A stretch of 64,000 nucleotides of DNA, taken from positions 261,285 through 325,284 of the forward strand of contig CAWEJX010000012.1 in NCBI GenBank assembly GCA_963809485.1, in the 5' to 3' direction. Within the stretch, counting starts at the first letter, position 1. Each line of letters begins with the position of its first letter. The position numbers and the translations under genes were made by a program. This DNA is from an uncultured Acidobacteriota bacterium. Lineage in GTDB: Bacteria > Acidobacteriota > UBA6911. The notes under the pieces were generated by a model that did not search any database, had not been told where the DNA came from, and saw only the letters and a list, made by a program, of their open reading frames with translations. Shown piece by piece: positions 1,279 through 57,401 of this stretch.

Positions 1279-1500
1279 AAGTCAGGCACCTCCGGCAAAG
1301 CCGGAGGCTTGAAAGATTGGAACCGCTCAAAGCGGTTGGAGGAGTTACGCTGGTCTTGAACGCTGACTGACGCGGGCAAACGCCGACTCTCGCCGAACAA
1401 ATCATAGACGTTTGTCAGCGCTTTTGTCAGCGTATCTCAGCGTTTCAAAATGCGGAGCTGTCAAACTCTATGAATCCCCCGGCAGAGCCGTGGGTTTACC
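1279..1500. mobile_element. Non-autonomous IS200-type element (MITE/PATE-like), copy 1
   Basis: One end CCTCCGGC-AAA-GCCGGAGG then AACCGCTCAAAGCGGTT; other end GGAGCTGTCAAACTCTATGAATCCCCCGGCAGAGCCGTGGGTTTACC; no transposase between, only inverted CGCTGA/TCAGCG arrays; homologous copy at 33254-33478. Confidence 0.7.
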
Positions 1501-1574
1501 AATAGAATCGAGCACCCCGGGAACTGCGCCCATCTTTGAGATGAACGGTAGAGAGCCGTCCGTCCCTCTCAGTA

Positions 1575-5975: not shown

Positions 5976-6076
5976 GCCTGTATCTCCTTATATGAGGTGC
6001 AGCCGGTCGCGGTACTTCAGCGGCCGGCCCATAGTATCCGCCGTTTCGCCCGAATCTGCTTATGCGTCGCTCCGGC

Positions 6077-9300: not shown

Positions 9301-9927
9301 TGGCTGAGCCACGTATTGAAACCCGCTGTCGATGCCCAGGTTGGCATCCTGGCCCTCAATCCGCAGAGTCTGCGTGCCCGCCGGAGTCCCCTGCATGCGG
9401 ATGCTGGTGCTGTTCGCGGACCCGCTCGCCGACAGGCCGGGAACCAGGTCTGCGGCAGCATAGGGAGAGCGCATACCGCCTCCGACCGCCAGAATAGGCA
9501 GTTCGTTCAGGCGTTGGGATGTGACGGTATGACTCAGGTCGCCGCTTTCCGTCCTCAGCAGCGGGGCGTCGGCATTGACCGTGACGGTTTCGGTGATGTT
9601 TCCTACCTCGAGCGCGACATCAACGCGCAGGGTCTGCGCGACCAGCACCGTGATGCCCGTTCGGACGTACTGCTTGAATCCTTGCGCCGAGACGGATATC
9701 TGGTAGCTGCCGGCCGGCAGCTGGGCAAGGGTGTAATTGCCCGTGGACGTGCTTTCCACCTGGTATAAAGCACCCGTCTCGGAATTCTTGGCATCAATCC
9801 TGGCACCCGGTATAACGGCTCCTGCGGGGTCCGCGATCGTGCCCGTGATTGTGCCTCGGTCGCTCTGGGCGAACGCCAATCCGCCCAGGAGCAGCAAACA
9901 TGTGAGTGTTATCAACATCGAGCGCAT
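6316..9927 (-). CDS. TonB-dependent receptor (Acidobacteria type), copy A
   Basis: Signal peptide, carboxypeptidase-regulatory-like domain, SNFAAEFG...KSGTNALHGSAYEY, FAQDTWKVTRKLTLDYGLRWD, C-terminal Phe. Confidence 0.93.
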   Translation of the reverse strand: MRSMLITLTCLLLLGGLAFAQSDRGTITGTIADPAGAVIPGARIDAKNSETGALYQVESTSTGNYTLAQLPAGSYQISVSAQGFKQYVRTGITVLVAQTLRVDVALEVGNITETVTVNADAPLLRTESGDLSHTVTSQRLNELPILAVGGGMRSPYAAADLVPGLSASGSANSTSIRMQGTPAGTQTLRIEGQDANLGIDSGFQYVAQPSVDAIDEFAIQTSNFAAEFGQAGGGVMNAAIKSGTNALHGSAYEYWVNEALNASRGYINQKPRDRKNDYGFTLGGPVYLPGIYDGRDKTFFFFNFEQYRTSVSYITPNTIPTVAMRNGDFSAILTGRNLCPATNPNCALDTQGNPVPIWENAIYDPATETTVNGLRVRDPFPNNRIPVERFDPVSAKIQALVPMPTNSAITNNFYPNQFIPSAKTIPAVKIDHYFSPKIKLSGYWSYAFTIGRKQMNDGLDFPGSMAYDNPQNSHTFRLNYDQTLSPTLLLHFGAGYMHTLWAQTQPEFKTEEELGLKGTYVDFFPTITGIFSPFGGYGNPTGGMGANQLYHLYEEKPTTNASLTWVKQNHTYKFGVELRLAGNPMYLDWPSNGYFAFNAIESGLPSTQGQNLFGGTVGFPWASFMLGAVDTGAIGPQTATRMGKSAWALFAQDTWKVTRKLTLDYGLRWDYQGYLKEQHGRVPSISAAVPNPAVGNLPGGVIFEQTSGPFANVYKYAFGPRLGVAYQITPKAVFRGGWGYSYGQTAPNNFWSMRFGSNVPFAAPAYGTPAMLLKDGVPIQPTWPNFDPGQFPAIPSTPTSFLTMFDHNAGRPPRIMMWSIGLQYQLTTNLAVEAAYVGNRGVWWQAAAINDPNRLTPEILAKNHLDINLKADRDLLLARLDSQTAISRGFGTPPYPAFSKALTVNQALRPFPQFTGINVLWNPQGNTWYDSLQAKVTKRYSYGLDLTAAYTWAKELTLGTGETDNAAFFALNTSINNSLDRNVNKYLSGYSRPHRLVVAANYRLPALETNKTLSWIIRDWTYGVMLTYTSGAPIRVPYAQNQIGTLLKLSTPMNFSFGAVPFGTGSFANRVEGEPYFTTDLNCTSCFDPNKEFVLNPKAWSDPAAGQFGTTAAYLSDYRYRRAPLENMSLGRTFPIVEQVTLNIRIELNNVFNRIRVPNPTATNAQATQRVDANGKPITGFGYINTGPGSIGRTGQIVARIQF

Positions 9928-10650: not shown

Positions 10651-13600
10651 TCAGAACTGAATCCGTGCAACTATCTGGCCTGTACGGCCGACACTGCCCG
10701 GACCCGTGTTGATATATCCGAAGCCCGTGATCGGTTTGCCGTTCGCGTCGACTCTCTGCGTGGCCTGAGCATTCGTTGCAGTCGGATTGGGCACTCGGAT
10801 CCGGTTGAACACGTTGTTGAGTTCAATCCGGATATTAAGCGTGACTTGCTCCACTATCGGGAACGTCCTGCCCAGGCTCATGTTCTCGAGCGGAGCGCGC
10901 CGATACCGGTAATCGCTCAGGTATGCGGCCGTGGTGCCGAACTGGCCGGCAGCCGGATCCGACCAGGCTTTCGGATTCAGCACGAATTCCTTGTTCGGAT
11001 CGAAGCAGCTGGTGCAGTTCAGGTCCGTCGTAAAATACGGCTCCCCCTCCACACGGTTGGCAAACGAGCCCGTGCCGAACGGTACGGCCCCAAAAGAGAA
11101 GTTCATGGGAGTGCTGAGCTTCAACAGGGTCCCGATCTGGTTTTGCGCATAGGGCACGCGGATCGGCGCCCCGCTGGTGTATGTCAGCATCACGCCGTAC
11201 GTCCAGTCGCGGATTATCCACGACACCGCCTTGTTGGTTTCCAGCGCCGGCAGTCGATAGTTCGCCGCGACCACAAGGCGATGCGGCCGCGAGTAGCCGG
11301 ATAGATACTTGTTAACATTCCGGTCCAGCGAGTTGTTGATGGAGGGATTGAGGACGAAGAAAGCAGCGTCTTCGGTCTCTCCCGTGCCCAGGGTGAGCTC
11401 CTTCCCCCAAGTGTACGCGGCCGTCAGATCCAGACCATAGGAATACCGCTTGGTCACCTTCGCCTGCAGCGAGTCGTACCAGGTGTTGCCCTGCGGATTC
11501 CACAAAACATTGATCCCCGTGAATTGCGGGAACGGCCGCAGTGCCTGGTTCACCGTAAGCGCTTTCGAAAATGCCGGATAGGGCGGTGTGCCGAATCCGC
11601 GGTTAATGGCAGTCTGCGAGTCCAGGCGCGAAAGCAACAGGTCCCTGTCCGCTTTAAGATTGATGTCCAGGTGGTTCTTGGCAAGGATTTCGGGCGTAAG
11701 CCGGTTGGGATCGTTGATCGCGGCCGCCTGCCACCACACCCCGCGGTTGCCCACGTAAGCGGCTTCCACCGCCAGGTTCGTCGTGAGCTGGTACTGCAGC
11801 CCGATACTCCACATCATGATCCTGGGCGGACGCCCCGCGTTGTGATCAAACATGGTGAGGAACGACGTCGGCGTCGATGGAATCGCCGGGAATTGCCCCG
11901 GATCGAAGTTCGGCCATGTCGGTTGAATCGGCACGCCATCCTTCAGCAGCATCGCCGGCGTGCCATAGGCCGGAGCCGCAAACGGAACGTTGGATCCAAA
12001 GCGCATCGACCAGAAATTGTTCGGCGCCGTCTGCCCGTAGGAATATCCCCACCCGCCGCGGAATACGGCCTTGGGAGTGACTTGATAAGCAACCCCGAGC
12101 CGGGGACCAAAGGCGTACTTATAGACATTCGCAAACGGACCCGACGTCTGCTCAAATATCACACCCCCGGGCAGGTTGCCCACTGCAGGATTCGGCACTG
12201 CCGCCGAGATGCTCGGAACCCGGCCGTGCTGTTCCCGCAGGTAGCCCTGGTAATCCCAGCGCAAGCCGTAGTCCAGAGTCAGTTTGCGCGTCACCTTCCA
12301 GGTATCCTGCGCGAACAACGCCCAGGCGCTTTTGCCCACCCGGGTTGCTGTCGGCGGACCGATAGCTCCCGTGTCCACCGCGCCCAGCATAAAGCTGGCC
12401 CACGGGAATCCCACCGTGCCTCCGAAAAGATTCTGGCCCTGCGTGGAGGGAAGCCCCGACTCTATCGCATTGAAGGCGAAATAGCCGTTGGAGGGCCAAT
12501 CGAGATACATCGGGTTGCCCGCGAGGCGCAACTCCACACCGAACTTGTACGTGTGGTTCTGTTTGACCCAGGTCAGGCTGGCGTTGGTTGTGGGTTTCTC
12601 CTCATAGAGATTGTACAGCTGGTTGGCGCCCATCCCCCCTGTCGGATTGCCATAGCCCCCAAATGGAGAAAAGATGCCTGTGATGGTGGGGAAAAAGTCC
12701 ACGTAGGTCCCCTTCAGCCCAAGCTCCTCTTCAGTTTTGAATTCAGGCTGACTTTGTGCCCATAGGGTGTGCATGTAGCCCGCGCCAAAATGAAGCAGCA
12801 GTGTCGGACTGAGAGTCTGATCATAGTTCAGGCGAAAAGTATGCGACTTCTGAGGGTTGTCGTACGCCATGCTGCCGGGGAAGTCCAGGCCGTCGTTCAT
12901 CTGCTTGCGGCCGATGGTAAAGGCGTACGACCAGTAGCCGGACAGCTTGATTTTGGGGCTGAAAAAGTGATCGATCTTGACTGCCGGAATGGTCTTGGCA
13001 GAAGGGATAAACTGATTGGGATAGAAGTTGTTGGTTATGGCCGAGTTGGTCGGCATCGGCACCAGCGCCTGGATCTCCGCCGATACCGGATCAAATCGCT
13101 CTACCGGAATCCGGTTGTTTGGAAACGGATCGCGAACTCTCAGGCCATTGACGGTTGTTTCCGTGGCAGGATCGTAGATCGCGTTTTCCCAGATGGGAAC
13201 CGGATTGCCCTTGGTATCCAGAGCGCAATTGGGATTTGCCGGCGGGCAGAGATTTCGTCCCGTCAGGATTGCGCTGAAATCCCCATTTCGCATTGCCACA
13301 GTGGGAATCGTGTTCGGCGTGATGTAGGTCACGGACGTGCGGTACTGTTCGAAATTGAAAAAGAAGAAGGTCTTGTCCCGCCCGTCATAGATGCCGGGAA
13401 GGTAGATGGGCCCTCCAAGGGTGAAACCGTAATCGTTTTTGCGGTCGCGGGGCTTTTGGTTGATGTATGCCCGGTTGGCATTAAACGCTTCATTTACAAA
13501 ATAATCGTAGGCGCTTCCGTGGAGAGCGTTGGTGCCTGATTTTATGGCTGCGTTCATGACGCCGCCGCCCGCCTGCCCGAATTCGGCGGCGAAATTGCTG

Positions 13601-14262
13601 GTCTGAATCGCAAACTCATCAATAGCGTCCACACTCGGCTGCGCCACATATTGAAATCCGCTGTCGATGCCCAGGTTTGCATCCTGACCCTCAATCCTCA
13701 GAGTCTGCGTGCCCGCCGGAGTCCCCTGCAAGCGGATGCTGGTACTGTTCGCGGATCCGCTCGCCGACAGGCCGGGAACCAGGTCCGCGGCAGCGTATGG
13801 AGAGCGCATACCGCCTCCGACTGCCAGGATGGGCAGTTCGTTCAGGCGTTGAGAGGTGACGGTATGGCTCAGGTCGCCGCTCTCCGTCCTCAGCAACGGT
13901 GCGTCGGCATTGACCGTGACGGTTTCGGTGATGTTTCCTACCTCGAGCGCAACATCAACGCGCAGGGTTTGCGCCACGAGCACCGTGATGCCCGTTCGGA
14001 CGTACTGCTTGAATCCTGATGCCGAAACGGATATCTGATAGCTGCCGGCCGGCAGCTGGGCAAGGGTGTAATTGCCCGTGGACGTGCTTTCTACCTGGTA
14101 TAAAGCGCCGGTCTGGGAATTCTTGGCCTCGATCTTGGCGCCCGGTATCACCGCTCCTGCGGGATCCGCGATCGTGCCCGTGATTGTGCCTCGGTCGCTC
14201 TGGGCGAACGCCAATCCGCCCAGCATCAGCAAACATGTGAGTGCTATCAACACTGAACGCAT
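10651..14262 (-). CDS. TonB-dependent receptor (Acidobacteria type), copy B
   Basis: 1203 aa from ATG 14262 (RBS AGGAGG); colinear and nearly identical to copy A. Confidence 0.93.
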   Translation of the reverse strand: MRSVLIALTCLLMLGGLAFAQSDRGTITGTIADPAGAVIPGAKIEAKNSQTGALYQVESTSTGNYTLAQLPAGSYQISVSASGFKQYVRTGITVLVAQTLRVDVALEVGNITETVTVNADAPLLRTESGDLSHTVTSQRLNELPILAVGGGMRSPYAAADLVPGLSASGSANSTSIRLQGTPAGTQTLRIEGQDANLGIDSGFQYVAQPSVDAIDEFAIQTSNFAAEFGQAGGGVMNAAIKSGTNALHGSAYDYFVNEAFNANRAYINQKPRDRKNDYGFTLGGPIYLPGIYDGRDKTFFFFNFEQYRTSVTYITPNTIPTVAMRNGDFSAILTGRNLCPPANPNCALDTKGNPVPIWENAIYDPATETTVNGLRVRDPFPNNRIPVERFDPVSAEIQALVPMPTNSAITNNFYPNQFIPSAKTIPAVKIDHFFSPKIKLSGYWSYAFTIGRKQMNDGLDFPGSMAYDNPQKSHTFRLNYDQTLSPTLLLHFGAGYMHTLWAQSQPEFKTEEELGLKGTYVDFFPTITGIFSPFGGYGNPTGGMGANQLYNLYEEKPTTNASLTWVKQNHTYKFGVELRLAGNPMYLDWPSNGYFAFNAIESGLPSTQGQNLFGGTVGFPWASFMLGAVDTGAIGPPTATRVGKSAWALFAQDTWKVTRKLTLDYGLRWDYQGYLREQHGRVPSISAAVPNPAVGNLPGGVIFEQTSGPFANVYKYAFGPRLGVAYQVTPKAVFRGGWGYSYGQTAPNNFWSMRFGSNVPFAAPAYGTPAMLLKDGVPIQPTWPNFDPGQFPAIPSTPTSFLTMFDHNAGRPPRIMMWSIGLQYQLTTNLAVEAAYVGNRGVWWQAAAINDPNRLTPEILAKNHLDINLKADRDLLLSRLDSQTAINRGFGTPPYPAFSKALTVNQALRPFPQFTGINVLWNPQGNTWYDSLQAKVTKRYSYGLDLTAAYTWGKELTLGTGETEDAAFFVLNPSINNSLDRNVNKYLSGYSRPHRLVVAANYRLPALETNKAVSWIIRDWTYGVMLTYTSGAPIRVPYAQNQIGTLLKLSTPMNFSFGAVPFGTGSFANRVEGEPYFTTDLNCTSCFDPNKEFVLNPKAWSDPAAGQFGTTAAYLSDYRYRRAPLENMSLGRTFPIVEQVTLNIRIELNNVFNRIRVPNPTATNAQATQRVDANGKPITGFGYINTGPGSVGRTGQIVARIQF

Positions 14263-14577
14263 GAGACCTATCCTCCTAGAAGATAATTGGGCTTGTGCGA
14301 CCCATCCGAGGCTTCGGGCTTTATGGCACATCGGGCGCCGTCCCGTTCCAGCAGACAGGCCACTTCTCCAACAGTGATAATATTGAAGCCGCCGCTCGAA
14401 TCCGGTATTCGGGCGGGAATATCTCTCAATTACGTCGTTTGCATCCGGCAGCCTGAACATGGACACCAAAGTCAGCAGGTGCAAAAGCTTCAACGAAGAG
14501 CTTCGCAGCAGGATCTTGACGGCGCCGGATTTTAATCGGTTGCAGCCAGTATAAGATACTTTATAAATATTTGGCAA
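14263..14577 (-). promoter_or_regulatory. Sigma70-like promoter and conserved long leader, copy 3
   Basis: TTGCCA-18bp-TATACT on minus strand; shared leader blocks. Confidence 0.6.
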
Positions 14578-14905
14578 ATATAAAGTACTCCCTTATGGGA
14601 TGGGTATTTCATTTTGGACACTCCACGCATATCGGAAGCTTCTCCTTCTTAGTGCTCGATCTCCGAATTCGACTGCTGTTCGAGATGCCTTGCCATTGTC
14701 ACTTTGTAAGAGCTTATTTTGTTTTCCTTAGGTTGGGTGCGGCAGCTATAAGGCAATCCCCGCGATGCTATTTATTCAGGATGGAAAATCCGGCAGAATA
14801 GAGGGGCGCCACCGATCGTTCCAATGTGCGTGGGTTACCACCAGGATATCGGCAGAAATGGAGCATTTTCATCCTGGCGCCGATATGTAACTCCATACTG
14901 AGGCT

Positions 14906-16666
14906 ATGCGTTCTATGAATGCTTGCTGGAGGATCGACAGGACCCGATTGAGGATTTTTGCACTATTCGCAGCCTTGGCTTGCCTTCCCGTCAGCGCGGG
15001 GCCGGTGACGCAGAGGATACGCTATCGGATCGACGCCGCGGTCGACTACGAACTGCTGACGCTGAAGGGGTCCGCCGAGGTAAGCATTCCGAACGAAGGG
15101 CAGGAAACTCTGCGCGATGCTGTATTTTTCCTCTATGCCAATTCCAAGGGCATCGTCGGCGACGGGCGGCGGAAACACATAGCTGTCGACGGAGTAAGGC
15201 TTGGCACGGAGGCCCTGCCGTTTTCGCTGGATGGCCCGATACTGCGCGTGACGCTGAATACGCCTCAAAGCCGCTCCTTTGCTCTGCGAATCGATTATCA
15301 CGGCGTCGTGCCGCGATCTTCCGGCAACGGCGCGGGATTGACGGGCGCCCTCGGAGGTTTACTCGGCTCCATGAACGGCAACGCAGCGTCCGGGAACAGC
15401 GACTTCGGCCTCTATTGCTACAGCGATGGGATACTCAGCCTTGGATCCTTCTGGTACCCGCAGCTGGCCGTGCGAAAAAACGGGAAATGGGTGGATGAGG
15501 CGCCGGCGGGGCTGGGCGATGTAGCATACTCGGAAGCCAGCGATTTCGATGTCAGCCTTGCGGTCCCGGCGGACGTCAAGGTCATTACCTCAGGCACCCC
15601 ATCCGGGACAGGCCGCTATATCGCCTCGAATGTGCGCGACTTCGCGGTCCTCATGAGTGAGGACTATGTGTGCAAATCAGCATTCATCGAGGCGTCCGGC
15701 AAAAACATAACCGTCGAAGCGTGCGCCACGCGCGGAAATGCGGCGCAGGTCGACCGCTCGCTGGAGGTGGCAGGCCGGGCCCTGCAGATTTACTCGGGCC
15801 GCTTCGGGGAATACCCCTACAAAAACTTCAAGGTGGTGGAAGGAACACTCACCGGCGGGGCAGGCGGAATGGAGTTCTCAGGCATGACGGCCATCGCCCC
15901 GATGCTCTACACGGACTGGAGCACGCAACTCCGCGAGCTGACAGGGATGCTGGGTAACCTGGGCGGTCTGGATAAGCTGCTCGGCGGCCTTAATGCCGGG
16001 CAAGATGGCGGAGCTTCCAGGCAGCAGGCGGACTCCACGCCCCAGAAAACCGCCGGGGATCTTTTCGGCTCAATTCTGGGCCAGAAAAATGCCCTCGATT
16101 CGCTGCTGGAAATGACCATCGCCCATGAGGCTGCGCACCAGTGGTGGGCGATGGCCGTGGGGAGCGACAGCGTGCGCGAGCCGTTTGTTGACGAGAGCTT
16201 GACCAACTATTCGGCGATACTCTATTTTGAAGACCGTTACGGCAGAGAAGCCGCTCAGAAGATGATCGACACACACCTGAAGATGCCATACTCGATGGCG
16301 CGCCTGATGGGACTCCCCGATGCGCCGGCCAACCTCCCGACATCCGCATACGCCAGCAACCTTCAATACAGCGCTATCGTTTATGGAAAGGGTGCGCTTT
16401 ATTACGACGCTTTGAGGCGCGCTGCCGGCGACGAGGCATTTTTCTCTGCTCTGCGCGCCTATTACCAAAAGTATCGCGGTCATCTGGCGGGGCCGCGAAG
16501 CTTTCTCGACCTTGTCAACACAAAGGCGCCTGCGGCGGGCGCCGGAGCATTATACCGGCACTGGATTGAGGAGACAAACGGGGACCAGGACATCTCCGGG
16601 CCGGGAATTATCGGGATTCCGGGAATCCTTGGCGAATTATTGAGGAAAAGCAGCCCGCCGCAATAG
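14906..16666 (+). CDS. M1-family zinc aminopeptidase, probably secreted
   Basis: GGMEF, HEAAH with downstream E (DESLTNY), YGKGA motifs; N-terminal hydrophobic segment. Confidence 0.88.
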   Translation: MRSMNACWRIDRTRLRIFALFAALACLPVSAGPVTQRIRYRIDAAVDYELLTLKGSAEVSIPNEGQETLRDAVFFLYANSKGIVGDGRRKHIAVDGVRLGTEALPFSLDGPILRVTLNTPQSRSFALRIDYHGVVPRSSGNGAGLTGALGGLLGSMNGNAASGNSDFGLYCYSDGILSLGSFWYPQLAVRKNGKWVDEAPAGLGDVAYSEASDFDVSLAVPADVKVITSGTPSGTGRYIASNVRDFAVLMSEDYVCKSAFIEASGKNITVEACATRGNAAQVDRSLEVAGRALQIYSGRFGEYPYKNFKVVEGTLTGGAGGMEFSGMTAIAPMLYTDWSTQLRELTGMLGNLGGLDKLLGGLNAGQDGGASRQQADSTPQKTAGDLFGSILGQKNALDSLLEMTIAHEAAHQWWAMAVGSDSVREPFVDESLTNYSAILYFEDRYGREAAQKMIDTHLKMPYSMARLMGLPDAPANLPTSAYASNLQYSAIVYGKGALYYDALRRAAGDEAFFSALRAYYQKYRGHLAGPRSFLDLVNTKAPAAGAGALYRHWIEETNGDQDISGPGIIGIPGILGELLRKSSPPQ

Positions 16667-16669
16667 GAG

Positions 16670-16711
16670 CCAGTGTTTGTCAGCGTTTTTTTATCAGCGC
16701 ATGTCAGTGTT
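16670..16711 (+). repeat. Four-box TCAGCG array
   Basis: CCAGTG-TCAGCG-TCAGCG-TCAGTG, spacing 10/14/10, between convergent genes. Confidence 0.7.
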
Positions 16712-16788
16712 ATCGGTTCCCGGGAAATTTTCACCCTCCAAATTCGCCGGCAAAACCGCGTATGAACGATGCGCCGAATCCAGACCCA

Positions 16789-18183
16789 TTATTTCTTTCC
16801 CGGCATTCCGCCTGAATACAGCGCGGCGAAATGGAAATCGTACTGCCGGCCTGCCACATAGCAGAGGACGGCGGATATCGTCAGTGGAATCGATATCAGG
16901 GCCAGCAGTGTCCCCAGAGGCAATCTTGCCAGAAGAAGGCCGCCGAGAGAGGGCCCCAGGATGGCCCCGATCCGCGCCACGGCTATGGCCGTGCCGGCGC
17001 CCTGGTTCCTGCAGCTTGACGGATACACGATTGGGGCGAGTATCGTCACATCCATGTGAGCGGAATTGATGAAGAATCCGCTGGCAAAAAGCAATACGAC
17101 AAAGCCCGTCTGCGCCTGGTTGCCCATGAATATGACGCAGACACCGGCAATGACATACAGTACCGATCCCCACCGGAAGCCGACCTTGTCAAAGTAGAAG
17201 CCGCTCAACAGGCAGCCGATGGCGACCAGGACCCCGTTGGTCCCGGTGATAAATGCCGCCGTTGAAGCGGAAAAGCCTTTCACCACGAGCAGTTGCGGCG
17301 CCCAGGAGCCGAAAAAGAAAACCGCGATGGAACTGACCAGGTAAAAGGTCCAGATGACGGGCGTAACCCATGCCAGCCTGCCCGAGAAAAGCTCCTTCAC
17401 AGAACGGCGTTGCTTGCCCGATTCGGCGGAGATAAACCGGGTGCTTTCATCAACCAGGATGCCGGGTCGCAGCTTTTGGACTATCGCGGCAAGAGCCTTC
17501 CTCTGCTTCTCGGTTTTGTATCTGACGGAAAGCCATCGGGCGGATTCGGGAAGCATCAGGATGAGCACGATTATTACGGCGAGGGGGGCAAAGAAACCCA
17601 GAAGGAACAAGGGCCGCCAGCCCACGCTTTGCAGCATGAAGCCGGCAATGTACCCGGCGAGAACAATACCGACCAGAAAGCCCGAATACATGACCGACAC
17701 GTACTTCCCTCGCCCCTTGGAAGGCGAATACTCGCTGGTCAGCGTAATCGCGCATGGCACGGCGCCCCCCAGACCGATCCCGGCGAAGACGCGCATCGGG
17801 ATGAGAGTCTCGAGGGAATGCGAAAAGTAAACGAGCATCGTGGCAACCGAGAAAAGAAACGCTCCAAGGATGAGCGATTTCTTCCGTCCGATAGTATCCG
17901 AGAGAGTGCCGAAAGCCAGTGCGCCGAACAGATACCCCACGAACGCCGCGGAAAATACTCCGCCGAACAGCGCGGTGCCTATATCCCATTCCTTCATTAC
18001 GGTCGGGGCCGCCACCGAAATGATCCCATAATCATACCCATCCATCAGCATGATCAGACCGCACAAGATGACGACACGGATTGAAATACGGTTCAGTCTG
18101 GAATCGTCAATGATTTTCCCAACGTCGATCACCGGCGCTTCTCTGCCGGTCCCGCTTGCATCGGCCTCGCTGATGGTGCCCAT
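16789..18183 (-). CDS. MFS transporter, aromatic acid:H+ symporter (PcaK/BenK-like)
   Basis: DGYD in TM1, GTLSDTIGRK, AGIGLGGA, TSEYSP. Confidence 0.88.
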   Translation of the reverse strand: MGTISEADASGTGREAPVIDVGKIIDDSRLNRISIRVVILCGLIMLMDGYDYGIISVAAPTVMKEWDIGTALFGGVFSAAFVGYLFGALAFGTLSDTIGRKKSLILGAFLFSVATMLVYFSHSLETLIPMRVFAGIGLGGAVPCAITLTSEYSPSKGRGKYVSVMYSGFLVGIVLAGYIAGFMLQSVGWRPLFLLGFFAPLAVIIVLILMLPESARWLSVRYKTEKQRKALAAIVQKLRPGILVDESTRFISAESGKQRRSVKELFSGRLAWVTPVIWTFYLVSSIAVFFFGSWAPQLLVVKGFSASTAAFITGTNGVLVAIGCLLSGFYFDKVGFRWGSVLYVIAGVCVIFMGNQAQTGFVVLLFASGFFINSAHMDVTILAPIVYPSSCRNQGAGTAIAVARIGAILGPSLGGLLLARLPLGTLLALISIPLTISAVLCYVAGRQYDFHFAALYSGGMPGKK

Positions 18184-18341
18184 GGAAAACTCCCCGCATT
18201 TTCAGCTGCGAATTCCATCCCCGGCGGGACCTGCAATCCCGGGGGAGGGATGACTCGCCAAAAGGCCTTCCAGCCGGCAAACGGATGCCGTCCGGCCGCT
18301 GGCGCAGATCCCGGCCGCCTCGATTCTGCCCATCCGTTCCA

Positions 18342-19781
18342 TCAGTGGGTTCCCGTGAGAATTGCGCCCTGCGCCACCAGGATACGCTGGAGTTCGGCAA
18401 CATCGGCCTCCAGCATCCTCGGTGTGATGCCGTGTTTTGCGCAGAGAGCAGCCGCCACACCGGCTGCCTGCCCCGTTACCATCGTTTGCATGAGGAACCG
18501 TTGATAGGCCTCGCGCCGCGTCGAAACCGCCTTGCCTGCAACAAGCAGATTCTCGATTTCCAGGGGAACCAGGCAGCGGTAAGGGATGTCATGCGATCCG
18601 CCGTTGCGGGGGACATCGGGAGGCTTCATGGTTGCCAGGGTTCCCGGGCCCACGACGTGGACGGCGCCGGCCGGGAAAGCGCTCTTGCCTATCACGTCGC
18701 TGAATTTGCGCTCCTCAATCACATCTTCGCCCTTTAAAACGTAGTCGCCCATGATGCGCCGGCCTTCGCGGATCCGCAACTCGGGACAAACCCTGGTAAT
18801 GTAGGCATTCTCAAAACCGGGCAGATACTTTTTGATAAAATTCCAGGCTATCACGACCTGCCTGCGGCATTCGATTTCACCATAGGTCAGGTCCTCGGCG
18901 TCGGTCGCGTCGCAATTCCCGACTTGCGAGGAGTGCTGAAAATGGGCCTGGACGACGCCGCCCTCGCGCGGAATCAGGAAAAAGCCGACACCGCTGTATC
19001 CGTGCCACTCGCCGGTCTCCAGCCCTTTCAACTTGAGGCTCCGGTATCCCATGATTTCACCGAATTCGGCGATGGTGTCGACCTTCCGGATGCGTTCGAC
19101 GAGCTGTTCGAAAGTCCACTGATGCTGCGTGTTCTCCTGGAAGCGCTCGAACTCGAATTCCCGGGGATTGCTTTTGATGTATTCGAGGACTTTGTTCCAG
19201 TCGACCCCATCCGCGGTGAATGCAAGAGAGTGGGGTTCCATCTGTTCTTTGGGCAGGATCTCGTAAGGGGCGCCTGCGCGCGCCGCGACTTCCCCTTCAC
19301 CCGTGCAGTCGATGGTCACCTTGCCCGGAATCATTTGCCGCCCCGACACATTTTCCACCACAACGCCCTTCACGGCATTGCCTTCCTTGACGACATCGAC
19401 GACAAGAGAGCGGAGGAGGAGCTTCACATTGTTTTCGCGCATCATTTCGAAGATCAGCAACCCCCACCAGTCCGGATCCACGTAGGCGAAGGTGTACCAG
19501 CCGCGGAAATCCGGCTCCATATGGGGAATCGCGTGCCCTTCCCTTAGGAGGCGCTCGTGAGTTTCGGCGATGATTCCGCCGATTATGCGTTCTTGCCGTT
19601 CATTGTAAAGATTGGCGTAGGCGAAACCCGGGGGGCCGGAAATGTTCATCTGGCCGCCCAAGGCTCCGACCCGCTCAATGACGATGGTTTTCGCCCCTGT
19701 CCTCGCCGATGCGATTGCCGCGGCTACCCCCGACGTCCCCCCACCGGCCACGATCACGTCATATTCAGCGTTTGCCTGCAT
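18342..19781 (-). CDS. FAD-dependent oxidoreductase
   Basis: DVIVAGGGTSGVAAAIASAR, IDCTGEG, IREGRRIMG, IPYRCLVP...NLLVAG, TGQAAG. Confidence 0.88.
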   Translation of the reverse strand: MQANAEYDVIVAGGGTSGVAAAIASARTGAKTIVIERVGALGGQMNISGPPGFAYANLYNERQERIIGGIIAETHERLLREGHAIPHMEPDFRGWYTFAYVDPDWWGLLIFEMMRENNVKLLLRSLVVDVVKEGNAVKGVVVENVSGRQMIPGKVTIDCTGEGEVAARAGAPYEILPKEQMEPHSLAFTADGVDWNKVLEYIKSNPREFEFERFQENTQHQWTFEQLVERIRKVDTIAEFGEIMGYRSLKLKGLETGEWHGYSGVGFFLIPREGGVVQAHFQHSSQVGNCDATDAEDLTYGEIECRRQVVIAWNFIKKYLPGFENAYITRVCPELRIREGRRIMGDYVLKGEDVIEERKFSDVIGKSAFPAGAVHVVGPGTLATMKPPDVPRNGGSHDIPYRCLVPLEIENLLVAGKAVSTRREAYQRFLMQTMVTGQAAGVAAALCAKHGITPRMLEADVAELQRILVAQGAILTGTH

Positions 19782-22370: not shown

Positions 22371-22563
22371 ATGAAACGCTTCTTTTGCCTCAAGAGGTCG
22401 GCCCTTTGCAGTGCGACACCATCGGAAGCGTCTCGTTGGCTCCTGCAAGCCGACCGGTGCCTTTGTGATCAGCGTTCGTCAGTGTTTTGTCAGTGTATGT
22501 CAGCGTTCAATGATCCTGGAACGTTCAAACTCTGTGAGCTCCTCAGCAGAGCCGGCGGTTACC
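22371..22563 (+). mobile_element. Partial copy of the IS200-type element with TCAGCG array
   Basis: TCAGCG/TCAGTG x4 (10/11/10) followed by GATCCTGGAACGTTCAAACTCTGTGAG...GCAGAGCCGGCGGTTACC, matching one end of the complete copies. Confidence 0.6.
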
Positions 22564-22570
22564 CCTTAAT

Positions 22571-24607: not shown

Positions 24608-24778
24608 GAGTGAACACCCGGATAAACAGACCCAAGAAACCTGGCGTGGCTCCCCGGCCACAACATAAGAATCCCTGCAACAAAAGCCGCTGCCGAATCG
24701 GAAATCCGGGATGCCGCAAATGGGCGGGTCCGGACTGTGACAGGCCGCCTCCCGGGATCCGCAAAAGCCGGCGGCGCG

Positions 24779-25204
24779 TCAGAAGCCCGGCTTGGCCTTG
24801 AGCACGCCCAGCTGTATCAGGATTCCGGTGAAATCGTAGACCCGTGTTTCGTGCGCAATCCTGCCATTCTCAAAGGAAAACAGGAAGGCGCAGCGCATTT
24901 CGAACCGCTTCCCGGTAGGGGCGAGGCCGCAGAAATCGCCTTTCTGGGCCCCGGCCATCTTGATGAACTGCGCCGCCCTATCCCCGTCGATCAGCAGATG
25001 CTCGGCGACATACTCCGCGTCGGGAAAAGACGAAAACCATTGGGCGTAGACGTTTTGAATGGCGCCGCGATCCTTGACCTTTCCCCACAACGGACTGTCC
25101 ACTTCCCCATCCTCGGCGTGATCCGCCGCAAGCGCGGCGACGTCGTGGCGCTGCCATGCCGCGTCTCTCCTGGCAAAAAATTCCACGATTTCCTGGCGAG
25201 TCAT
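24779..25204 (-). CDS. SnoaL-like ester cyclase / NTF2-fold protein
   Basis: 141 aa; WFSSFPD, GDFCGLAPTGKRF; RBS GGAGG. Confidence 0.85.
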   Translation of the reverse strand: MTRQEIVEFFARRDAAWQRHDVAALAADHAEDGEVDSPLWGKVKDRGAIQNVYAQWFSSFPDAEYVAEHLLIDGDRAAQFIKMAGAQKGDFCGLAPTGKRFEMRCAFLFSFENGRIAHETRVYDFTGILIQLGVLKAKPGF

Positions 25205-25543
25205 GATCCGATCCCTCCTTGCGCGCAATAAATGCCGCAAATCACAGGGCTGATCTCTGCCCTGCGGTTTGAACCGCATTTCTCCGTGACCAGCCTTCAT
25301 CGAATCCTGGTTCCGGCGTCCGTTGATGAATCTGGTTCGAAGATGGATTTCCAGCCGAATGAATTCCGACCTGACCGGATGGACCCGCGACCTGTATGCA
25401 GCCCAGCTCCCTGCCGATCATGAGGAACAGCGCCTCCACGTCGACCGCTGGTGCAATGCTCTGAAACGCATTTTTTGATACTAATTGATATTGTAATGGA
25501 ATCATGGGATTAATGACAGTCCAGAATGGAAGGCCGCCAGGGA

Positions 25544-25637
25544 AACGCTGACCTGCGCTGACAAAAGCGCTGATATACGCTGAACAACCTATATTTTTTC
25601 AGCGTGCGTCCGCGTCTGTTCAGCGTAGCTCAGCGTT
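25544..25637. repeat. Inverted pair of four-box arrays
   Basis: CGCTGA x4 (10/12/10), AT-rich spacer, then TCAGCG/TCCGCG x4 (10/11/10); no IS ends. Confidence 0.8.
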
Positions 25638-25784
25638 ATTGATTCGGCAGAATTTTGATGAGATCGAGGGCAGGCGCGCTACAATAATTTACGGGGCGGA
25701 TTTCGGCGCCGTCGGTTTGAGACGCCTGGATTTGCAGCTGCCTCTTCATCGCATTTCTGACCATCGGTTTCAAGGAGGTTCAAG

Positions 25785-27290
25785 ATGGCACACAGGAAGT
25801 TTTACTGTCCCGGGGCACTCCTCCTGGCGGCAGTTTTGGCTCTTTTCTGCTCTTCCGCTTCCTCCCAGACGTTCGAGGCCGTCAGGAAGCAGGTCCAAAC
25901 CCAACTGCTTCCCAACGGGATGAAATTCATCGTCCTCGAGCGTCACGGCGCGCCGGTGGCTTCCTTCCATGTCTATGCCGACGTCGGCAGCGCCAACGAA
26001 TCGTACGGCATCACGGGCATCTCCCACATTCTCGAGCACATGGCTTTCAAGGGCAGCAAGGCGGTCGGCACCAAAGATTACGCCGCGGAATCGAAAATTC
26101 TCGAGCAAATCGATTCTGTGTACGCATCTCTTCGCAACGAGGAAAGCAAGCCCGAACCCGATCCGGCAAAGGTTGCGGAACTCAGGAAGCAGTTTGCCGG
26201 CCTCGAGAAACAGGCCAAGGAGTATGTCGTCAACAACGAATACTTCGACCTGATGATGCGGGAGGGAGATAACGGAATTAACGCTTACACTTCCAGCGAT
26301 GCCACGCAATACATCAACAGCCTGCCCTCGAACCGGCTCGAATTCTGGATGGCCATGACTTCGGACCGGTTCCTGAACCCTGTGTTCCGTGAATTTTATA
26401 AGGAACGCGACGTGATCATGGAGGAGCGCAGGATGGGGCTCGAGACCCAGCCCACCGGCAAGCTGGTCGAGGATTTTCTGGCCGTGGCTTTCAAAGCCCA
26501 CCCGTACCACCACGAGGTAATCGGGCACATGTCGGACCTGCAGTCGATCATGCGCAGGGATGTCGAGACCTATTTCGCCAGATTTTACGGTCCCAGCAAC
26601 CTGACGGTCGCCATAGTCGGCGACGTCCGAGCGGATGAGGTTTTCAGGCTTGCGGAAACCTACTTCTCCAGGATTCCAGGCAGCCCAAAACCTGAGCCGG
26701 TCCGCACGCAGGAACCCGAGCAGTGGGGCGAAAGGCGCGTCGCGGTCTCGGCCAAAGCGCAGCCTTATCTGGCCATGGGTTACCACGTGCCCGATGCCCG
26801 GCACAAGGACAGCCGCGCTCTGGAGGGATTAGCCAACATCCTCGGCCAGGGACGGTCCTCGAGGCTTTTTTCATCACTGGTCAAAGATAAGAAAATCGCC
26901 ATTTCCGCTTCAGCCTCCAGCGGTTTCCCGGGTGACAAATACCCGAACCTTTTTGTCCTTTTCGCTGTGGCAGCCGCCGGCAAAACATCGGCCGAATGCC
27001 AGTCCGCCATCGAGGATGAGATCGAGAGGATCAAAAAAGAGCCCGTGAGCCCGGATGAGCTGACAAAATTCCAGAGGCGCTCCATCAAGAATCTCCTGGA
27101 CCAGATGGCCAACAACGCGAGCATGGCCGCACTCCTGACCTACTCCGATGTGGTTCTGGGCAGCTACGGGAAGCTTTTTGACCAGATCGATCAAATCAAG
27201 GCGCTGACGGCGGACGATCTCAAGCGGGTCGCAAACCAGTATCTCGTCAAAAACAACCGGACAATCGGCGAAATCATTCCTGAGGAATAA
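25785..27290 (+). CDS. M16 zinc protease, catalytic subunit
   Basis: GISHILEHMAFKG (HXXEH), NAYTS, signal peptide. Confidence 0.92.
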   Translation: MAHRKFYCPGALLLAAVLALFCSSASSQTFEAVRKQVQTQLLPNGMKFIVLERHGAPVASFHVYADVGSANESYGITGISHILEHMAFKGSKAVGTKDYAAESKILEQIDSVYASLRNEESKPEPDPAKVAELRKQFAGLEKQAKEYVVNNEYFDLMMREGDNGINAYTSSDATQYINSLPSNRLEFWMAMTSDRFLNPVFREFYKERDVIMEERRMGLETQPTGKLVEDFLAVAFKAHPYHHEVIGHMSDLQSIMRRDVETYFARFYGPSNLTVAIVGDVRADEVFRLAETYFSRIPGSPKPEPVRTQEPEQWGERRVAVSAKAQPYLAMGYHVPDARHKDSRALEGLANILGQGRSSRLFSSLVKDKKIAISASASSGFPGDKYPNLFVLFAVAAAGKTSAECQSAIEDEIERIKKEPVSPDELTKFQRRSIKNLLDQMANNASMAALLTYSDVVLGSYGKLFDQIDQIKALTADDLKRVANQYLVKNNRTIGEIIPEE

Positions 27291-33286: not shown

Positions 33287-33478
33287 TTGTCTACCGCTCA
33301 AAGCGGCTGGATGAGCTACACTGCCTCTAACCGCTGACATACGCTGGCAAGAGCCAATGAGACGCTTCCGTTGCCTTATGGATCGGCGTTCGTCAGCGTT
33401 TGGTCCGCGTATGTCGGCGTTCAAGGATCCTGGAACTGTCAAACTCCGTGAGTCGCCCTGCAGAGCTGTGGGATTACC
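33254..33478. mobile_element. Non-autonomous IS200-type element, copy 2
   Basis: AGTCAAATACCTCTGGCAGAGCCGGAGGCTTGA...ACCGCTCAAAGCGG...box array...GGAACTGTCAAACTCCGTGAGTCGCCCTGCAGAGCTGTGGGATTACC; colinear with 1279-1500. Confidence 0.7.
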
Positions 33479-33564
33479 AGTTTATTTAGGGGATTGAGTT
33501 ACAAGGCAGGACAAACCGGTGCCGAGAGAGGATATCCTCACGCGGAGGCGCGGAGAATAGAAGG

Positions 33565-39074: not shown

Positions 39075-39114
39075 TCAGCGTCCGTCAGCGCTTTTGTCAG
39101 CGTCTGTCCGCGTT
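39075..39114 (+). repeat. Four-box TCAGCG array
   Basis: TCAGCG-TCCG-TCAGCG-CTTTTG-TCAGCG-TCTG-TCCGCG-TT (10/12/10). Confidence 0.8.
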
Positions 39115-41816: not shown

Positions 41817-44800
41817 CTACGAACGAAGTTTCAGGGCGCGTTCCAGTGAGGGCTGCATTTTCATTTCGCCGAACTCCTTGATGGCGAAGTCGAGGTGCTC
41901 CAGGGCGTTCGCCTTTTCTTCGGGATAGTGCTCCAGCAGAAGCTCGGCAAGCTGGAGACGCGTAAGCGCCAGTTCCGGGCGGATCCTCATTCCGGCGGTG
42001 ACCTTCTGCGCATCCTGATAAAGCCTGCGCGCTTCGTCAGGCCTGCCAAGAAGCACTGCGGCTGCGCCGAGATGGCGCGATATGCAGGCCGTATAATTGA
42101 GGACCATGTTCATACCACTTTCGACAAACCTGCGCAGCAGCAACTCCGCGGCCGGGCGGTGCCTGATTCTCAAGGCCGCTTGAAGCAGGAACATATCAAT
42201 AAAGGTTGGAGTTTCATCTTCGACGGATCCAATATCAGGGCGTGCTATTACCCATTTCTCAAGGATTTTGGCCGCCTCCATATTCTGCCCAAGCTGGAGA
42301 AAACTCTGAAATTGGATGGGCATGGTTTTTAACAACTGAGCACATTCATCAAAACGACCAAGCAGGAGCAGTGGTTGGTAGGCGGCCATACTCCCAAAAA
42401 GATTTGCCCATTGAGCGGTGCCCGGTTGGTCGCCACGGGCAAGAATGCTTTGGGATATCGCTACTGCCTCCTCCAGATTGCCATCAATGGTGGCCTGGAA
42501 GGAGTCACAAGCCTTCGATGCAATCAGCATGTTGACCTGTCCGCTACGCTCCGCTGTTTGTTTCAGCTCGCTAGAAAACTCCTCAGCGCGTTGGCGATTG
42601 CCGGACTCCAGGAAGACATAGCCAATTAGACGGGAACCAATCCCATACAGTCTTGGCGAAATACCGGCCCGGGCTATTTGCGCCAGCTCTTCTGCCAGGT
42701 TCAATCGCGCTTTTGCATGTTGAGGCGCAGCCACGATATTAAGCACCGCGCAGGCGGCAAACCAGAATGCCTCGGTGTCATTGACGCGCCGGGCCAATTC
42801 AACGTTCCGGATGAGAAACCGAAAACCTTCGTTCGATATGTCAAATCGCTGCGCAAAAATCCCGCCAAAAACTTTCTGCTCCCCTATGCCTATATTGGCA
42901 CAGACGCGCGCTGGCGTATCCGGTGCCGCATAGCGATCAGCCCTGTCCAGCCACTGAGCTGCCTCCGGAGTAGACCAGCTACCCGCACCGGCTCCATAAA
43001 AAAGCAGGGCAAACATTGCCAATGAGCAGGCACGGGAAGCACGGGTTTTATCCGCAATCGCCTCGGCCAAGGAAAACGCTTCCTGCAGCTCGGCAGAAAA
43101 AGCCCTTTGCGGTTCCCCAACAGTGATCAGGAGGTCGCCCAGAGCAAGTTGGAGGTCGCACACTTTTTCCTTATCATCGGGATCGAGCACTCTCTGTACC
43201 TTTATGGCTTGCTCCAGCAGGCGCACTGCCTCGCCGTAAGCATAGACGGACATAGCCCGCTGCGCCGCGATTTCACCGTACGATACCGCCTTGGCCAGAT
43301 CTGCAGGATCGGTGGATTGCGAGAAATGCTCGGCCAGCTCCGCGGCGTGCTCATCGAGCCGTTTGGCATATTGAGTCTCCAGAGCGCGCGCCACCTGCTG
43401 GTGCAGTTTCAGGCGCTGCGGGGCTATCAACTCTTCGTACATGGTCTGGCGGAAGAAAGCGTGCGTAAAGCGGTAGCGGATGGAACCGAGCTGCGAGCGT
43501 TCTTCCAATACCGACATCTGAACGGCTTCCTTTAATGCGCCGACAAAAGCGTCCTCACTGATATTTGCCACTCCCCTCAGGATGTCGAGAGAAAATTCCC
43601 TGCCGATTACAGAAGCCACGGAGAGCAGCCGATTGCAGTCCGCGCTGAGCAGCGACAGGCGCTTGCCGATGACGTCGCGCAGTCCTTCGGGTATGGTCAT
43701 TTCCAGCGGGGTTTCGCGGCTGGACTTCCAGCGCCCTTCCTCGCGGCTTATCAGGCCCTCCTCAGCCAGATAGCGCACCACTTCCTGCACGAAAAGCGGA
43801 TTCCCTTCCGTCTGGCGATGCACGGCCTCGGCGAGGCCCCAAGGGACCTCCTGCCTGGCGATGCTCTCCAGCATGCGCCGGACTTCGTCGGCATTCAGGC
43901 CGCGCAGGAGAACGCGTCCATAACTGGACATGCGCCGCAGTTCGGCCAGAGCGGCCGAAAGCGGATGGCTGCGGTCGACCTCCACATCCCGGTACGTTCC
44001 CATGATCAATACTCTTGTCCCAGCCAGGTGGCGCGCAACATGTGTCAGCATGTCCAGCGTCCCTTTGTCGGCATCATGAAGGTCCTCGACGACAAGCAGC
44101 AATGGCTGGACATTCGCGGCGTTAGCCAGGAATCCGGTGACGGCCTGCAGCAGCCGGTATCGTTCCTCTTCGGGATCCTTCGGCGGCCGCAGTTTTATTT
44201 TCAGCCGCTCCCTGATTTCAGAAACGATACGAGCGACATCGGCCGCGCCGGTTCCCAATTCCTTTTGCAGGTCCTTGACTTCGCGGGATAGAACGTAGCT
44301 GCGCAAGGCTTCCACAAACGCCAGGTAGGGCAGGCTTAGGGAACCTTCCTCGTAACAGTGGCCCACCAGCGCCTTGCCGCCGCGCAGCGTGACATAGGTG
44401 GAAAGCTGCTCGCACAGGGCCGTTTTGCCGATGCCCGGCTCGCCCACCACCATCGTCAATGACCCCTGCCCGGACATGGCGCCGTCAAACGCCGACTGGA
44501 GCTGGCGCAGCTCGGCCTCTCTCCCGACAAACACGCGCCGATAGATCGGATTTTCCCCGGGCGGGCGGGATTCCTTCGTTTCCAAAATCCTGCCTGATTC
44601 GATCGATTCGAGGACCCGGGAAACAGCCGACGCGGACTCCGGACGCTTCTGCGGATCCTTCTCCAGCAGCTGAAGAATCAATGCCTCCAGCGCCGACGGA
44701 AGATCGGCCCGGTGCCAGGAAGGCGATATCGGCGGCGTATTGATATGCTGGCCGACGACGGCGATCGCGTTTTCCCCCAGGAATGGTGGACGTCCGGCTA

Positions 44801-45619
44801 CCATTTCGTAGAGCATGGCACCAAGCGAATAAAGATCGGACTTCGGAGTAACCGTGCCGGCAATCGCTTGCTCCGGAGACATGTAAGCCACGGTGCCTAC
44901 AATCATGCCGGACTCCGTGAGGCGGGAAAGATCGATGTTTACGGCCAGACCGAAGTCGCCGATCTTGGCCGTGCCGTCAGCGCTCAGCCAGACGTTTCCC
45001 GGCTTCAGGTCGCGGTGGATGATGCCTTTCGAATGAGCAAACGCGAGGCCGCTGGAAATAGCTTTGGCGATCCCGACTGCCTTTTCGAGCGGAAGGCGAT
45101 GTCCGGGCGCCTGCTCAAGCAGGTCCTGAACGTCGCCTCCGGCAAGCAGCGGCAGAACCATGAAGGGCCTGCCTTCGTCGTCGCCAAAGTCGTACACGGC
45201 GACGATGTTCGGGTGATCCCCGAGACGCCCCATGGCCTGGGCTTCGCGCTTGATGCGCGTGCGGGCGTCCTCATCCAGCCTTTCGGTCTTTATCTGGGCG
45301 AAGGGTCGAGCACGGTATCGTGGACCAGGTAAACCCGCTTCTTGCCGCCCTCGCCAAGAAGCTTTTTCGCCCTATAGCGGCCGCCCGCAAAGGAATTGGG
45401 CTCCGGAGACCCCTGGGCTAACGGCTCAAAGGGGCCCTGCGTGGAATCTGTGGATGTTACGGGACTCAGACTGTGGCCGCACTGTTCACAGAACCTGGCA
45501 GGGAGGATATTTTTATGGCGGCAATTGGGGCAGACAGCCTCCGCCTGCAGCAGCTTGCCGCATTCCCGGCAGTATTTTGCCTTTTCGGAATTATTGGTCT
45601 GACAAGAAGGGCATTTCAT
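41817..45619 (-). CDS. Zinc-ribbon / Ser-Thr kinase / P-loop ATPase / helical-repeat protein, frameshifted near 45303
   Basis: Four CxxC (45619-45470), [44 protein letters not shown]; frame break at GAC-CC-TTC. Confidence 0.85.
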
Positions 45620-45744: not shown

Positions 45745-45834
45745 TCTGCTGAGGATGGGAGAACCTGCGGAGTTTGACAGCTCCTTGACCGGATAACGCC
45801 GACTTACGCTGACAATAGCGCTGAGGAACGCTGA
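45745..45834 (-). mobile_element. Degenerate reverse copy of the IS200-type end plus four-box array
   Basis: TCTGCTGAGGA...GGAGTTTGACAGCTCC then CGCCGA/CGCTGA x4 (10/12/10). Confidence 0.6.
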
Positions 45835-45874
45835 CCATCAAGACTCCGGCAGCGCGGGAGGCCGGTGGTTTTGC

Positions 45875-57299: not shown

Positions 57300-57338
57300 T
57301 CAGCCTTCATCCGCGTCTATTCAGCGTCCGTCGGCGTC
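57300..57338 (+). repeat. Four-box TCAGCG array
   Basis: TCAGCC-TCCGCG-TCAGCG-TCGGCG (10/11/10). Confidence 0.65.
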
Positions 57339-57401
57339 CTGTTATGCTGAGCCCGTCTGCTCTTGAGAATTCTCCGCCAGAGTTGCGGATTGCCGATGCA
57401 T

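Follow-up and report, generated by a model that had tools for sequence, protein, structure and literature searches.

Phased four-box TCAGCG arrays in an Acidobacteriota genome as probable arms of a repeat family partnered with a GxxExxY nuclease gene

Arrays of phased boxes in the window

The window, that is, the whole stretch of 64,000 nucleotides analysed here, is C12:261285-325284 of G000, the genome under study, whose assembly comprises 6.04 Mb in 21 contigs. Its genes, which look acidobacterial in content, were placed by our own ORF map with Pfam support. A relative, G006, is 93-95% identical over the syntenic stretch. Dispersed over the window are short arrays of the hexamer TCAGCG (Table 1). 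The hexamer itself occurs 80 times, against 44.7 +/- 6.8 in 100 shuffles, the largest of which held 63. The sequence-only reading that preceded this work had named eight loci, each with four such boxes. The scan looked for four boxes at spacings of 10-11 / 10-14 / 10-11, with at most 3 mismatches per 24 box letters. It found at least one array at every one of these loci (one or two per locus) and nine in total, against none in 30 second-order Markov simulations. The spacing is 10/11-12/10 in eight of the nine.

As that reading had also stated, the linker sequences differ from copy to copy while the boxes and their spacing are kept, and the boxes are usually followed by TT (1130 of 2156 boxes genome-wide). 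Two further descriptions can be made more precise. It had counted two full inverted pairs; the one at 25546-25635 is indeed complete, in the one at 1361-1442 the left arm has decayed (4 mismatches), and a third pair, likewise decayed, lies at 33309-33419. It had also placed seven of the eight loci just past a gene 3' end, which is roughly right: a 3' end lies within 100 bp at six of the eight, with the array 16670-16709 beginning only 4 bp past the stop codon of an M1 peptidase gene. The pair 25546-25635, on the other hand, is located between divergent genes, namely a SnoaL-like gene on the minus strand and an M16 peptidase gene on the plus strand, and the array at 57300 is 40 bp upstream of a gene start.

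Table 1. Positions of the arrays and associated features in the window, and of the GxxExxY cassette on contig C7
Feature	Position	Strand	Remarks
Complete short composite element	1289..1510	+	Order: hairpin end module A, degenerate reverse arm, 8-bp loop, forward arm, hairpin end module B; without counterpart at the orthologous G006 site
Left arm facing 1405-1442	1361-1396	-	Spacing 10/10/10, 4 mismatches, decayed
Four-box array	1405-1442	+	From the window scan
Bare solo array	16670..16709	+	Spacing 10/14/10, 3 mismatches
Array 22469-22505 followed by end module B	22469..22565	+	Carrier-borne
Left arm of bare inverted pair	25546..25583	-	Spacing 10/12/10, 0 mismatches
AT-rich loop of bare pair	25584..25598	.	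15 bp
Right arm of bare inverted pair	25599..25635	+	Spacing 10/11/10, 1 mismatch
Old degenerate composite element	33309..33480	+	Decayed reverse arm, forward arm, module B
Decayed reverse arm of this element	33309-33347	-	5 mismatches
Forward arm of this element	33383-33419	+	From the window scan
Bare solo array	39075..39112	+	Between the ends of two convergent genes
Array 45797-45834 with module B on its other side	45745..45834	-	Element in reverse orientation
Array 57300-57336 with decayed module-B-like tail	57300..57400	+	3 mismatches
GxxExxY ORF	C7:765102-765530		142 codons; outside the window
Left arm at the gene	C7:765014-765050	-	1 mismatch
Right arm at the gene	C7:765545-765581	+	1 mismatch

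Distribution in the genome

The genome-wide scan that the earlier reading had proposed found the family to be abundant, with 539 arrays in the 6.04 Mb at the same tolerance of 3 mismatches. The spacing is 10/12/10 in 314 of them, 10/11/10 in 140 and 10/10/10 in 80, so that 534 of the 539 fall within 10/10-12/10. In 1 Mb of the real sequence there were 62 arrays and in a third-order Markov copy of it none. An unbiased census of periodic 6-mers gave CGCTGA a score of 261, while the next family, AACGTT, scored 25. The middle linker is slightly richer in T than the others (62% vs 47-53%).

Chains of the looser box TCNGYG with two, three, four, five and six boxes number 878, 115, 438, 7 and 1, against 223, 2 and 0 in a reversed-genome control. 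Four boxes is the preferred chain length. Growth by nested insertion, in which a two-box hairpin enters the loop of another, was considered and set aside, as chains of at least five boxes are nearly absent (8 of 1439) and the excess of T in the middle linker is only slight. One site is in line with it, having 2+2 boxes in G006 and 4+4 in G000, and the notion is kept as an idea only.

By crude ORF calls, in a genome that is 84% coding, 433 of the 539 arrays are intergenic. Convergent spacers hold 31% of the intergenic arrays and make up 21% of the intergenic length. Fifty-one tight, gene-less inverted pairs of four-box arrays in the order '- +' account for 102 of the 539 arrays. Their loops, 15-27 bp long, are 91% AT, and the pair 25546-25635 of the window is among them.

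The arrays fall into two classes, 269 being bare and 270 joined to end modules. The bare ones are concentrated around the GxxExxY gene described below, with 47 in C7:700-790 kb, and another 52 lie in C8:600-673 kb, the mean being 2.2 per 50 kb. The arrays of the other class are spread evenly over the genome. At C8:627652-628291 and C8:639840-640720, a TCAGCG pair together with 60-150 bp of flank stands in tandem in four to five copies. The counterparts of these two places in G006 contain either a single partial copy or a different family, and tandem units of the same type, again a pair with 60-150 bp of flank in four to five copies, were seen in a further genome (G015 C1:688067-689190).

A gene-less carrier of probable IS200 type

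The end modules belong to a composite element, of which there are 161 complete copies, mostly of about 210-230 bp or about 390 bp (range 210-390 bp; size clusters at 209-223 and 384 bp). Its order is a hairpin end, a decayed reverse arm, an inner palindrome in the long form, a forward arm and a second hairpin end, with the end hairpins 9-14 nt from both ends. It has no coding capacity. About half of all arrays ride as cargo in this gene-less carrier of 210-390 bp. Five of the eight window loci (1289-1510, 22469, 33309-33480, 45745-45834 and 57300) are such cargo of a larger IS200-type element, which the sequence-only reading had missed; the remaining three (16670, 25546-25635 and 39075) are bare.

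Among the 161 copies, target duplications of 3 bp were seen once, of 4 bp twice and of 5 bp or more never. The flank reads AATTA, with 79-96% agreement at each position, and two of the empty sites in G006 contain AATT. An IS200-like element at C6:298.4 kb, with a TAG in its Y1 gene, has an end that can be aligned over about 45 nt with one carrier end, although BLAST alone found no match between the two. The absence of target duplication, hairpin ends and a fixed short target are habits of derivatives of IS200/IS605 elements, known as PATEs, which are moved by a Y1 transposase made elsewhere. It is only the composite carrier that resembles them, in these three habits, in its lack of coding capacity and perhaps in having one end alignable with a resident IS200-like element. 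It differs in that the four-box arrays are internal cargo and not ends, and the bare pairs and the gene cassette have no carrier ends at all.

Candidates for a larger mobile element did not hold up. No autonomous element with carrier ends was found, and the four pairs of ends at 3.5-5 kb look like mere neighbours. Ends of TnpB/IS605 or IS607 transposons in the window were rejected, there being no transposase among its 47 ORFs by Pfam. Integron attC sites in the array-dense region were rejected as well (best TIGR02249 match 100 bits, cut-off 265). Four matches to Y1_Tnp (PF01797) exist in G000, none with a TCAGCG array within 3 kb. One Y1 transposase gene, at C15:225627-225971, has clusters of a different hairpin repeat on both sides and looks like an ordinary RAYT with its REPs.

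The GxxExxY gene and its arms

The earlier reading had compared the arrays to inverted repeats of about 10-bp period around GxxExxY genes, and had noted that no such gene lies in the window. Both points are borne out. The genome has a single match to TIGR04256, at 109 bits (cut-off 35), and the same ORF matches PF13366 at 116.7 bits. It lies on C7, outside the window, and is bracketed by the very same arrays. The '- gene +' geometry of the cassette is that of the 51 gene-less '- +' pairs, the gene occupying the place where these carry their AT-rich loop.

In 29 sequences, the residues E29, D68, E78, K80, Q92 and Y96 are invariant (E78-x-K80 and Q92-x-x-x-Y96). A structure model of the protein (pLDDT 88.8) has Cas4 SSO0001 and lambda exonuclease as its best fold matches, with a TM of about 0.5; a search of solved structures by sequence gave no match. 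The protein is predicted to be a small Cas4/RecB-like PD-(D/E)XK nuclease with its catalytic residues intact. In a 2012 survey of the PD-(D/E)XK superfamily, the passage on PF13366 gives its function as 'Unknown' (PMC3424549).

A search for a recurring partner protein near the arrays, in which 4481 ORFs within 1.5 kb were clustered, yielded none; the largest cluster (170) consists of ORFs that overlap the repeats, and the remaining clusters resemble ordinary paralogue families, as judged by size.

The same design around related genes

For 35 related GxxExxY loci taken from other phyla, a strict automatic test, which asks for inverted exact boxes at 8-10 bp spacing, found inverted periodic boxes at 16. 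Of 12 loci inspected by eye, 11 have arms, with boxes such as TCCGCG, TCCGTG, TCTGCG, AATCAG and similar. The closest relative of the G000 gene comes from an Acidobacteriota MAG.

Within the genus, the family is present in 12 of 30 genomes, and arms were seen at 12-13 of 13 loci inspected. All five of the closest relatives inspected (L045/L098, L101, L102, L103 and L104) have TCAGCG/TCGGCG/TCCGCG boxes. Other gene lineages in the genus have CACGAAT, CGCGAAGAC or CACGGA boxes, and the type differs between lineages even inside one genome, G012. In these comparisons, box type follows gene lineage. This alone does not prove recognition, because the gene and its arms are co-inherited.

Chains of at least three TCVGCG boxes, numbering four or more, occur in seven of the 30 genomes, with counts of 506 in G000, 96 in G006, 46 in G015, 7 in G035, 6 in G007, 5 in G002 and 4 in G012. 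The matching gene lineage is found in six of these seven genomes and in none of the other 23. As the genomes are kin, the co-occurrence is to be read as an association and not as a statistical test. In G012, G007, G035 and G002, the few chains lie mostly around the gene itself. The orientation of the arms is not fixed: G012, G015 and G002 have '+ gene -', whereas '- gene +' is found in G000 and G007. Four-box arrays are absent from 17 of 18 sampled relatives of the same genus. In viral contigs, the one exact match to the pattern was an unrelated coding tandem repeat.

The exception is G006, in which no GxxExxY match was found in a 98%-complete assembly of 200 contigs, despite its 96 chains. 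In this genome, either the gene is missing from the assembly, or arrays can be retained, or even multiply, in its absence.

Variation between close relatives

The sequence-only reading had offered the ends of a short mobile unit as one meaning of the arrays, and had suggested that orthologous loci be compared for filled and empty sites. This comparison with G006 speaks for mobility: at eight sites, a composite element in G000 is matched by at most 25 bp in G006. Out of 58 indels between the two genomes in 452 kb, 21 involve an array. In the window, the whole pair 25546-25635 and the arrays at 39075 and 57300 are common to both genomes, and the element 1289-1510 is absent from G006. At other loci, the synteny breaks at or beside the array. 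It stops at 16636, shortly ahead of the array at 16670; at the 22469 locus, homology begins within the array, at position 22479; and it resumes at 33556, just past the 33383 element, and at 45869, just past the array at 45797.

For the bare pairs, the comparison gave no clean empty site and no target duplication, and G006 mostly has another box family there. The palindrome of the bare pairs extends only to TAA|...|TTA. At the site of the gene cassette, G006 has no gene; AACGTT boxes that recur every 9 bp form an array there instead. At no fewer than seven orthologous junctions, a TCAGCG element in G000 is matched by AACGTT/GTGGAA arrays in G006.

In G000, this second periodic family, whose AACGTT / GTGGAA boxes have an 8-9 bp period, numbers 25 chains, and G006 has many of them. 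The family was seen at G006 C10 and C21, at G000 C7:755111-755140 and elsewhere, in the same intergenic sites as the TCAGCG elements, and no GxxExxY gene matching it was seen.

In four metagenome runs, examined over 24700-26400, one 16-kb contig spans the bare pair, with 75 differing letters in 1663. The left arm is replaced by other letters in two of the four runs, and no joint that removes the pair was found in any of them. The extra depth on the arm stems from other contigs that bear arrays.

Box recognition and hairpin pairing

An inverted pair can be kept for its boxes or for the hairpin that it forms. As single-strand DNA, the stretch 25538-25642 folds at -25.2 kcal/mol (z = -4.9). In the 51 pairs, complementarity between the two arms is 90.5% in the boxes and 60.4% in the linkers. 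The linkers of unrelated arms are 62 +/- 1.7% complementary, so those of partner arms do no better. The likeness of partner boxes (0.9052) equals that of shuffled partners (0.9057; 1108 of 2000 shuffles reach the observed value), and non-consensus boxes have a matching partner in 13 of 81 cases, with 15.4 expected. Since both linkers and partner boxes match their controls, each arm appears to represent the family pattern independently of its partner. By linker complementarity and partner-box covariation, the 51 pairs give no sign of maintained arm-to-arm pairing.

That boxes are kept and pairing is not favours recognition of the boxes themselves over that of a hairpin, and makes putative binding by a multimeric protein, which the sequence-only reading had raised, more likely. 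The box starts, at 0, 10, 21-22 and 31-32 bp, would put all four boxes on one face of B-DNA. In the 18 arrays common to G006, the change rate is 8.6% in boxes, 13.1% in linkers and 11.2% in flanks; a constraint on the boxes after insertion is not significant in these 18 (Fisher p = 0.08 and 0.13).

A role as an intrinsic terminator was rejected for the bare pair, as the window has no terminator-like site in 25300-25900 and the arms end in TT, with no T-run. An Rfam search of the window matched no family.

A repeat family partnered with a nuclease

We propose that the arrays are probably arms in a family of repeats whose partner is the GxxExxY nuclease gene, and that a nuclease reading the boxes would seed bare copies. 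An arm consists of four direct copies of (G)TCAGCG(T)T, which would lie on one helix face. Between two inverted arms there is an AT-rich loop of 15-27 bp or, in a single case in the genome, the 142-codon GxxExxY gene. Several subunits of the protein, lined up on one face of the DNA, would recognise the boxes, and cutting at or near the arms would seed the copying of bare pairs. The three bare copies of the window (16670, 25546-25635 and 39075) would then be gene-less descendants of such copying, and GxxExxY would be to these repeats what the RAYT transposase is to REPINs. The copies in the window appear to be a widespread selfish DNA element in its gene-less form. The best-supported, though still putative, mechanism is one in which the nuclease recognises the boxes and drives the formation of the bare copies. 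Against this main reading, the IS200-type carrier could by itself account for the dispersal of about half of the arrays. The chains of G006, where no gene was found, the non-significant constraint on the boxes, the lack of a clean empty site or target duplication for bare pairs and the variable orientation of the arms around the gene weigh against it as well.

A wider claim may be made, tentatively and with the expectation that it will more readily fail than hold. GxxExxY genes and phased-box arrays could form a separate class of within-genome replicator, a PD-(D/E)XK equivalent of REPIN-RAYT. One face of a four-box arm would then be the docking place of several nuclease subunits, rival box families would displace one another at the same chromosomal sites, and the present genome, with its one gene and about 540 arrays, would be a natural bloom.

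The gene may instead be an invader. Older hairpin arrays would have been spread by the carrier, by recombination and by tandem amplification, and a homing-type GxxExxY gene would have settled in their AT-rich loops. The gene does sit where gene-less pairs have a loop of 91% AT. Half of the arrays are in a carrier with its own means of moving, G006 retains its 96 chains with no gene found there, and a pair with its flank has been amplified in tandem at C8:627.6-628.3 kb and C8:639.8-640.7 kb. Nor is the orientation of the arms around the gene constant. However, if any hairpin could serve as a target, it is hard to see why the box type should be particular to the gene lineage, even inside one genome, and the chains of G012, G007, G035 and G002, which lie mostly around the gene, imply that the gene brings its arms along. 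We consider the invasion unlikely.

Two further explanations dispense with the nuclease. The arrays may be sites of a DNA-bending or global regulatory protein of the host, as has been proposed for paired arrays in Geobacter metallireducens, the nuclease gene being incidental. One-face phasing of direct repeats would fit cooperative binding, and the passages of Aklujkar et al. 2009 on this species describe opposite-strand pairs of tandem 7-9-mers (PMC2700814). Such a host role appears improbable, given that the presence of arrays differs between genomes that are 93-95% identical, with another box family at the same sites, that 17 of the 18 sampled relatives of the genus have no four-box arrays and that the arrays track one gene lineage. 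Furthermore, the enrichment is at convergent gene ends and not at promoters, and the constraint on boxes is not significant. Alternatively, the arrays may act as RNA or single-strand hairpins, that is, as transcript ends, stabilisers or processing sites, like REP elements or rRNA intervening sequences. The stable fold of 25538-25642 and the many copies that adjoin gene 3' ends would suit this. It is very improbable, since the complementarity of partner linkers does not exceed that seen with unrelated arms, partner boxes show no compensatory changes and most arrays have no four-box partner arm (102 of 539 are paired); the bare pair also has neither a T-run nor a terminator-like site at 25300-25900, and there is no Rfam match.

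Relation to known systems

The partnership proposed here, of arrays with a nuclease gene, resembles in design that of REPINs and their RAYTs (PMC3116915, PMC3337134, 10.1101/2022.05.22.493013). The two have in common a single-copy gene flanked by inverted short repeats, hundreds of gene-less inverted doublets in intergenic DNA, and mostly vertical inheritance with copies that differ between close relatives. They differ in the partner, which here is a PD-(D/E)XK nuclease (PF13366) and not an HUH Y1 transposase (PF01797), and in the repeat, which here is made of four phased direct boxes and not of one short palindrome. Arm-to-arm pairing is not kept here, and none of the four Y1_Tnp matches has an array within 3 kb.

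In Geobacter metallireducens, a site of classes 1-3 is built of three to five 7-9-mers in tandem, and such sites form pairs, one on each strand, at a variable distance; they are present in tens of copies, all of them intergenic, and IHF/HU or unknown global regulators were suggested to act there (PMC2700814). Judged from the legends of that paper, the consensus TCTCCGTS resembles the TCCGTG boxes that flank related GxxExxY genes. The difference is that the sites are read there as sites of IHF/HU or of a regulator, and the passages concerned do not mention a link to a nuclease (PMC2700814).

Several short motifs at the ends of IS607 and Hermes are bound by several transposase subunits, according to passages of a further paper (PMC6188088). 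The likeness lies in the repeated short motifs inside each end, serving as docking sites, and for IS607 also in the lack of target duplication (PMC6188088). These elements use serine or DDE transposases, of which there are none beside the arrays here, and the analogy is one of mechanism only.

Literature searches found no paper tying GxxExxY to repeats, which does not prove that none exists, and no description of a selfish element of four TCAGCG boxes. GxxExxY/PDDEXK_3 is a large family across many phyla, and a link to repeats would give it a testable role. If the proposal is true, a second protein fold would join the few enzymes by which bacterial populations of palindromic repeats are maintained. 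The genome is a good test case, with one gene and hundreds of arrays, a close relative that differs at many sites and a second box family competing for sites. In practical terms, many indels that separate close relatives (21 of 58) are marked by these arrays, which also break assemblies.

Other features of the window

The segment 28764-33555, of 4.8 kb, holds genes for a GH3 glycosidase, a short-chain dehydrogenase and others, with the 33309..33480 element at its right edge. It is missing from G006, which has 83 bp with an unrelated palindrome in its place. G006 is also without a counterpart for 42089-45868. A gene for a Ser/Thr kinase-AAA-TPR protein spans 41817-45233; its Pfam kinase match begins at profile position 56, and the N-terminus may be cut or the start miscalled.

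At 54689-55144 and 47400-48101 are, respectively, a MazF/PemK-like toxin ORF and a DUF4143 ORF that is without the usual ATPase part. At 51064-52917, a unit of 287-288 bp is repeated in tandem six to seven times. The repeats sit in ORFs for an Fn3 / purple-acid-phosphatase-N repeat protein (50561-51346 and 51431-54268), which may be one gene that is broken or mis-assembled.

Two genes resembling those of TonB-dependent receptors, at 6316-9927 and 10651-14577, share a 3' part that is 96-100% identical at a distance of 4335 bp. Both map to a single copy in G006 (14124-18547), which points to a recent tandem duplication in G000. The units 1574-4241 and 4967-6253 are also paralogous.
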